Part shown: positions 1,241 through 1,286 of the stretch, piece after piece
How positions within the stretch are numbered: position 1 is the stretch's first letter
How the letters are laid out: each line of letters opens with the position of its first letter
Origin: a virus
Lineage: Duplodnaviria > Heunggongvirae > Uroviricota > Caudoviricetes
Virus record (IMG/VR): IMGVR_UViG_2850761752_000006
Strand: one strand, 5' to 3'
DNA: 22,991 bases
Position numbers and translations under genes: made by a program
Notes under the pieces: generated by a model
What the model was told of the DNA's origin: nothing
What the model saw: only the letters and a program-made list of their open reading frames with translations
Database searches by the model: none

Positions 1241-1276
1241 AATGTACTGTTTTTTTAAAGAAAAAAACAGTACATT
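1241..1276. repeat. 16-bp perfect inverted repeat (aatgtactgttttttt aaag aaaaaaacagtacatt)
   Basis: Read directly: 1241-1256 is the exact reverse complement of 1261-1276, with a 4-bp spacer, in the AT-rich leader about 375 bp upstream of ipaH. Confidence 0.9.
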
Positions 1277-1286
1277 GATATATGAT
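1244..1286 (+). promoter_or_regulatory. Candidate MxiE box (GTACTGTTTTTTTAAAG, 1244-1260) with -10-like TATGAT (1281-1286)
   Basis: Matches the MxiE-box consensus GTATCGTTTTTTTANAG as I recall it at 14 of 16 defined positions (the TC at positions 4-5 is swapped to CT). A TATGAT hexamer lies 20 bp after the box, the spacing expected if the box spans -49 to -33. Oriented toward ipaH. Confidence 0.4.

Follow-up and report, generated by a model that had tools for sequence, protein, structure and literature searches.

The DNA upstream of the ipaH gene in the stretch analyzed here (22,991 bp, called the window throughout) poses the question of what a long perfect palindrome is doing in the promoter of a T3SS effector gene: is it a regulatory site or a hairpin in its own right, or does it belong to a MxiE box, the element through which genes of this kind are switched on? 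The gene (1636 to 3462, plus strand) encodes a 608-aa T3SS effector E3 ubiquitin ligase; its product scores 563 bits against the NCBIfam model IpaH_Shig NF046045 (cutoff, 550) and is classed as a T3SS substrate, and the RefSeq name for the 95 to 99% identical gene in enteroinvasive E. coli (EIEC) is "IpaHb." In the established picture of the MxiE regulon, activity of the T3SS leads to release of the AraC-family protein MxiE and its coactivator IpgC, which switch on promoters that carry a 17-bp box at −49 to −33, overlapping the −35 region. We hold with high confidence that positions 1244 to 1260 are the MxiE box of chromosomal ipaHb (ipaH_2/ipaH_7, class 5), and the palindrome is in our view probably part of this promoter instead of an element in its own right.

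The two arms of the repeat (1241 to 1276, unstranded), AATGTACTGTTTTTTT at 1241 to 1256 and AAAAAAACAGTACATT at 1261 to 1276, are 100% complementary and enclose the 4-nt loop AAAG, which bears out an earlier description of a perfect 16-bp inverted repeat; 3 of the 16 pairs in the stem are G-C. No other perfect inverted repeat in the window is as long (the runner-up has 10-bp arms), and the longest repeats did not exceed 11 bp in 60 windows simulated under a Markov-1 model or 12 bp in 2,000 simulations with the local AT-rich composition. The 16-bp palindrome is far above chance and highly nonrandom. As a single strand, the 36-mer has a hairpin free energy of −14.5 kcal/mol as DNA (z, −7.6) and −17.2 kcal/mol as RNA (z, −5.6). 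In promoter terms, the left arm and loop are the MxiE box, and the right arm fills the spacer from −32 to −17, where it constitutes an inverted copy of box positions 1 to 13 and sets its A7 tract about one helical turn away from the T7 tract.

We scanned the window with the MxiE consensus GTATCGTTTTTTTANAG, counting as a MxiE box any 17-bp sequence with three or fewer differences from it. One match was found, GTACTGTTTTTTTAAAG at 1244 to 1260 on the plus strand, with mismatches at box positions 4 and 5 only, the same count as the agreement at 14 of 16 defined positions given in the preliminary description. By chance, 0.03 matches per window are expected at two or fewer mismatches and 0.17 at three or fewer. 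All nine invariant box positions (G1, G6, T7 to T10, T12, A14, and A16) are present in GTACTGTTTTTTTAAAG (9/9), and the mismatched positions 4 and 5 are variable ones. The same consensus scan of the window found no second MxiE box upstream of ipaHb. The hexamer TATGAT, previously placed 20 bp downstream of the box, is present on the plus strand at 1281 to 1286; it matches TATAAT at five of six positions and is the proposed −10 element, and its 20-bp distance from the box conforms to the 19 to 20 bp counted in four other MxiE promoters.

For ipaHb, a Shigella effector gene, both the MxiE box and the promoter have already been published, with functional data on the identical sequence. In Table S2 of Hall et al. 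2022 (PMC9769918), GTACTGTTTTTTTAAAG is the MxiE box entered for both ipaHb copies of S. flexneri 2457T, ipaH_2 and ipaH_7, with a distance of 392 nt from the gene start for ipaH_7, equal to the distance here (1636 − 1244); Table S1 of the same study reports that Congo red induces ipaH_2 9.5-fold and that the mxiE mutant with Congo red remains at the uninduced level. The MxiE boxes of 14 genes, ipaHb among them, were the subject of Bongrand, Sansonetti and Parsot 2012 (PMC3299695); in their Table 1, ipaHb has the size of the coding sequence at 1636 to 3462 (1,827 bp) and is equated with ipaH2 and ipaH7 of 2457T. In the ipaH9.8 promoter, the transplanted ipaHb 17-mer matched any other box in activity, which was high when assayed in an ipaB mutant. 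As for the native ipaHb fragment from −57 to +11, it was T3SS regulated and fell, together with that of ipaH4.5, in the weakest group among the regulated promoters. The promoter fragments in that study measured 66 to 69 bp, their length varying with the spacing between box and hexamer; the ipaHb fragment (∼67 bp) corresponds to 1236 to 1303 of the window and so contains the whole palindrome. The ipaHb 5′ untranslated region (UTR), for which the coordinate is the longest listed (+331), had neither promoter activity nor expression-enhancing activity, and no further MxiE box was reported upstream of the gene (PMC3299695). These published experiments show that the ipaHb box is functional and that the gene requires both the secretion apparatus and MxiE for its expression. 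The papers examined on the MxiE regulon do not report that MxiE binds directly to any box.

The same study supplies the coordinates of the transcription start. The ipaHb 5′ UTR was cloned to +331 with its final 12 bp omitted (PMC3299695); the UTR is therefore 343 nt long, which puts +1 at the C at position 1293 on the plus strand (1636 − 343). Not all 5′ ends were determined by Bongrand et al., and the ipaHb +1 is a proposed position; a box at −49 to −33 is found also in MxiE promoters with mapped mRNA ends. We infer the exact start at 1293 from these figures, and it agrees with the start near 1293 put forward in the preliminary description, which had also portrayed ipaH as a MxiE-activated gene: box, −10 hexamer, and start all match the published ipaHb promoter. 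The accompanying figure of a roughly 360-nt leader has to be revised, as the distance from the annotated ATG at 1636 is 343 nt, and a value near 360 suits a second in-frame ATG at 1651. The two ATGs are 15 nt apart; annotation and the published size (1,827 bp) use the first, and the second has GAGAAA 7 to 12 nt upstream. The choice between them bears on the N-terminal secretion signal. The leader itself (1293 to 1635, plus strand) is AT rich, with 30.5% G+C across 1197 to 1635, and no Rfam-type RNA family was found in 760 to 3700 at E values up to 1. The main text of the M90T dRNA-seq paper contains no usable ipaH start-site entry.

We compared the promoter among the copies of ipaHb, which occupy two chromosomal sites, one adjoining pgl, the upstream neighbor in the window (1 to 762, minus strand), and one adjoining yfhH/tadA. 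The 36-mer is identical in all 11 copies found (in EIEC, S. flexneri, and a viral contig), and the whole pin-ipaHb intergenic region is ∼99% identical among them. Because the copies are this similar throughout, the invariance of the palindrome says nothing about selection, and the 11 identical 36-mers with their ∼99% identical flanks gave no covariation or selection signal. The sole promoter-proximal differences among the copies are at position 1279 (−14), with T in the window and the viral-contig copy and G in the nine other copies, and at position 1289 (−4), with T instead of G in two copies. Two EIEC genomes carry an insertion sequence between pin and the ipaHb promoter, either IS1, inserted ∼20 bp upstream of the palindrome, or an element of the IS110 family; box and palindrome are intact in both.

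Outside ipaHb loci, the 30-nt core of the palindrome was found neither in a representative set of one genome per species nor in viral contigs. A sensitive blastn search with region 1165 to 1640 produced matches in 6 of 5,426 E. coli genomes, all of them ipaHb, and in phage and plasmid records only the pin part was matched, except in one S. flexneri record, H1, which is classed as a plasmid and includes the ipaHb locus itself. A metagenome scan with a 20-mer anchor beside the −10 hexamer returned three unrelated chance matches.

Alignment with the other ipaH paralogs, as the preliminary description had proposed, separates the two features: the box is shared across MxiE promoters, and the palindrome is peculiar to ipaHb. 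The MxiE/IpgC-dependent promoters of ipaH9.8, ospC1, virA, ipaH7.8, ospE1/2, and ipaHa to ipaHe have a 17-bp box with the same nine invariant positions, at −49 to −33 and 19 to 20 bp from a −10 hexamer, and ipaHb, itself a member of the published set, likewise precedes a T3SS effector gene. Unlike the others, ipaHb has CT instead of TC at box positions 4 and 5, and it alone has the box as an arm of a long perfect palindrome. No comparable palindrome occurs at the 11 other MxiE boxes on pCP301 or in the ipaHa, ipaHc, ipaHd, and ipaHe classes (prophage contigs), in which no inverted repeat that overlaps a box has arms longer than 8 bp; the palindromic context is thus as unusual for a MxiE box, among the promoters examined, as had been suspected. 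An A-run directly 5′ of the MxiE box is seen in ospE1/2, ipaHd, ipaHe, and one ipaH variant, where A-run and box together make a short inverted repeat, A(5-7)-GTATCG-T(5-7), whose arms reach at most 8 bp, and such a 5′ A-run may extend the MxiE-box motif.

In Salmonella, InvF-SicA pairs an AraC-type activator with a translocator chaperone, and the asymmetric site at which they act in effector promoters likewise overlaps the −35 region; the chaperone-dependent AraC-family logic is like that of MxiE-IpgC, and the protein, box sequence, and organism differ. As for ipaHb, the words palindrome and inverted repeat are used neither in Bongrand 2012 (PMC3299695) nor in Dranenko 2022, which does draw attention to A- and T-rich tracks in ipaHb, its class 5. 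A full-text search combining MxiE, palindrome, and ipaH led to two papers, one of them a VirB study. The palindrome is apparently the sole undescribed feature of the ipaHb promoter.

The neighborhood of ipaHb points to a phage DNA inversion system. Upstream and divergent from ipaHb lies what is left of a pin-type DNA invertase gene, its truncated 5′ end (∼1039 to 1146, minus strand), ∼92% identical to the 5′ end of e14 pinE and to phage invertases, and annotated as a partial DNA invertase in a related ipaHb locus; while the pin gene is cut short in the window, at the other ipaHb locus it is interrupted by an internal stop. Homology to e14 stops ∼20 bp upstream of the pin ATG and is followed by a degenerate pix-like crossover-site remnant (∼1172 to 1196, unstranded, ending in GGGAGAA), recognized by alignment with e14 (pix sites used for comparison, TTCTCCCAAACCAACGTTTATGAAAA and TTCTCCCAAACCAAGGTTTTCGAGAG), and then by ipaHb-specific DNA. 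Downstream of ipaHb, the minus strand encodes a DUF4376 protein, a prophage tail fiber, and a tail-fiber assembly protein. The gene order across 1039 to 5484 (pin remnant on the minus strand, pix-like remnant, ipaHb on the plus strand, DUF4376 and tail fiber on the minus strand) mirrors that of the e14 P region (pinE, pix, alternate tail-fiber half, tail-fiber half), so that, judging by synteny, ipaHb appears to hold the slot of the alternate (silent) tail-fiber half of a Pin-type invertible segment. Of the features of Pin, Gin, Cin, and Hin segments, the 5′ end of pin and a pix-like remnant survive here, but pin is truncated, the palindrome is unlike pix, and no partner pix site is left within the window. 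A Din-family crossover site, defined as a 26-bp element in which a 2-bp core is flanked by 12-bp half-sites, was rejected as an identity for the palindrome on the same comparison with e14 pix; the pix-like remnant lies elsewhere, at ∼1172 to 1196.

Several further features of the locus were recorded. The right half of the pix-like remnant contains a poly-G tract (1186 to 1191), ∼100 bp ahead of the position proposed as the ipaHb start, with 6 G here and 6, 7, 17, or 21 among the copies; the tract might be hypermutable, or its length differences might be an artifact of sequencing through a homopolymer. After the ipaHb stop, between the convergent ipaHb and DUF4376 genes, region 3480 to 3540 includes a G+C-rich hairpin, GAGGCCCGCCCCCGGGCCTC (∼3508 to 3530), which is probably the ipaHb terminator. 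ipaHb lies inside a decayed lambdoid-type prophage, which makes up the rest of the window from 6000 to 22991, with many insertion sequences, among them IS1 (∼11980 to 12483) and IS3-family copies (8079 to 9235 and 19988 to 21201), and with a RecE-like exonuclease (17174 to 19384), a phage-integrase fragment (21340 to 21984), and a DUF968 protein.

Taken together with the published regulon, the reading that we favor is that of an ordinary MxiE promoter in extraordinary sequence: MxiE-IpgC would act at 1244 to 1260, with TATGAT 20 bp on, transcription would start at C1293, and a 343-nt leader would run to the ATG at 1636. The palindrome would then either be a relic of the origin of the promoter or serve to hold promoter activity low or silent. 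Since the box is active out of context and the native fragment is weak, the weakness resides outside the 17-mer, that is, in the A7-containing right arm and spacer, in the imperfect −10 hexamer, or in the C at +1; it is to this C, and not to the spacer, that Bongrand et al. (PMC3299695) tentatively ascribed the weak ipaHb activity. Were the right arm responsible, the A7 and T7 tracts might yield rigid or bent AT-rich DNA that is prone to H-NS binding and makes a poor spacer; alternatively, the weakening might come from the inverted partial box that this arm contains.

Whether the palindrome is a working modulator that lowers promoter output, rather than a relic, is the first alternative to be weighed. 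It could do so as a decoy or occluding MxiE site over −36 to −20, by favoring H-NS binding, or by cruciform extrusion. The contrast between the weak native fragment, which includes the whole palindrome, and the 17-mer, which on its own is fully active in the ipaH9.8 context, argues for such a role, as do the improbable length of the repeat, the stability of the hairpin, and the fact that H-NS silences other MxiE-dependent genes. Against it, the inverted copy has five mismatches, the important A14 and A16 among them, the weakness has simpler explanations in the C at +1 and the imperfect −10 hexamer, and there are no variant copies from which selection could be judged. We regard a modulator as a possibility worth keeping in mind, though an unlikely one. 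A mirror-image MxiE box read from the minus strand (GTACTGTTTTTTTCTTT) was considered separately and rejected; with those five mismatches, including A14 and A16, activation from it is not expected.

The preliminary description had offered, in place of a MxiE box, a hairpin or a site for another dimeric regulator. As a replacement this is not supported, for the palindrome exists beside a functional box; as an addition, the palindrome might be the operator through which some phage-derived or host regulator controls pin and ipaHb in opposite directions. On either side of the palindrome a −10-like hexamer faces outward, TATAAT at 1234 to 1229 (minus strand) and TATGAT at 1281 to 1286 (plus strand); the two lie roughly symmetrically about the palindrome center and are consistent with this arrangement, and the outer half-sites TACTG and CAGTA resemble those of LexA. 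The minus-strand hexamer belongs to a candidate sigma-70-like promoter (1229 to 1258; TTAAAA, 18-nt spacer, TATAAT; 10 of 12 consensus positions) that faces the pin remnant and overlaps the left arm; the consensus scan of the region found 7 such sites against 4.4 expected, so this candidate is weak evidence. The pin gene that an operator would serve is truncated here and interrupted by the internal stop at the other locus, and the sequence was not found in phage or other genomes outside ipaHb loci. We therefore consider an operator of this kind very improbable.

LexA itself was evaluated as a candidate. The SOS box has the consensus TACTG-N10-CAGTA, and the outer arms of the palindrome are alike in reading TACTG...CAGTA. 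The half-site spacing differs, however: CTG and CAG are 18 nt apart here (1250 to 1267), instead of 10 nt in LexA boxes, and the LexA pattern is unmatched in the window at one or fewer mismatches. A LexA box was rejected on these grounds.

A further possibility is that the palindrome serves the minus strand as an insulator or intrinsic terminator, halting antisense or read-through transcripts from the tail-fiber operon before they reach pin. The pattern scan does flag the minus strand, where the 16 pairs are followed by the tail CTATTTTATA, and the RNA hairpin is stable at the −17.2 kcal/mol given above. Only three of the pairs are G-C, however, the U tract is interrupted, no minus-strand gene ends nearby, and the G+C-rich hairpin at ∼3508 to 3530 already stands between ipaHb and the tail-fiber assembly gene; the plus strand lacks a T tail and was not flagged. 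We judge termination by the palindrome highly unlikely.

The weakest alternative, that the consensus match is a coincidence in a T-rich palindrome and that ipaHb is expressed from elsewhere, can draw on the AT richness of the consensus and on the 16 of 100 shuffled windows that matched it at three or fewer mismatches, but only 3 of 100 did so at two or fewer, the nine invariant positions, −10 spacing, and downstream gene all fit a MxiE promoter, and the published reporter and RNA-seq data on the identical sequence contradict it, leaving it a negligible chance.

The MxiE-box reading accounts for activation of ipaHb, and what the palindrome may add concerns promoter strength. Bongrand et al. (PMC3299695) left unsettled which elements set the widely differing strengths of MxiE promoters. 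In its strongest form, the idea of a role for the palindrome is that it is a selected cis-element that tunes ipaHb: the inverted partial box and A7 tract would act by H-NS nucleation, DNA bending, cruciform formation, or occluded MxiE binding and leave this gene with the tightest silencing and the lowest output in the regulon. We think this form of the idea doubtful. If true, such tuning would explain how a fully functional box comes to drive a promoter that ranks among the weakest of the set, and how one effector is kept at low dosage. Even then it would leave the general picture of the regulon unchanged, and it would matter chiefly to specialists in Shigella regulation, for whom the ipaHb palindrome would be one element behind the strength of a MxiE promoter.
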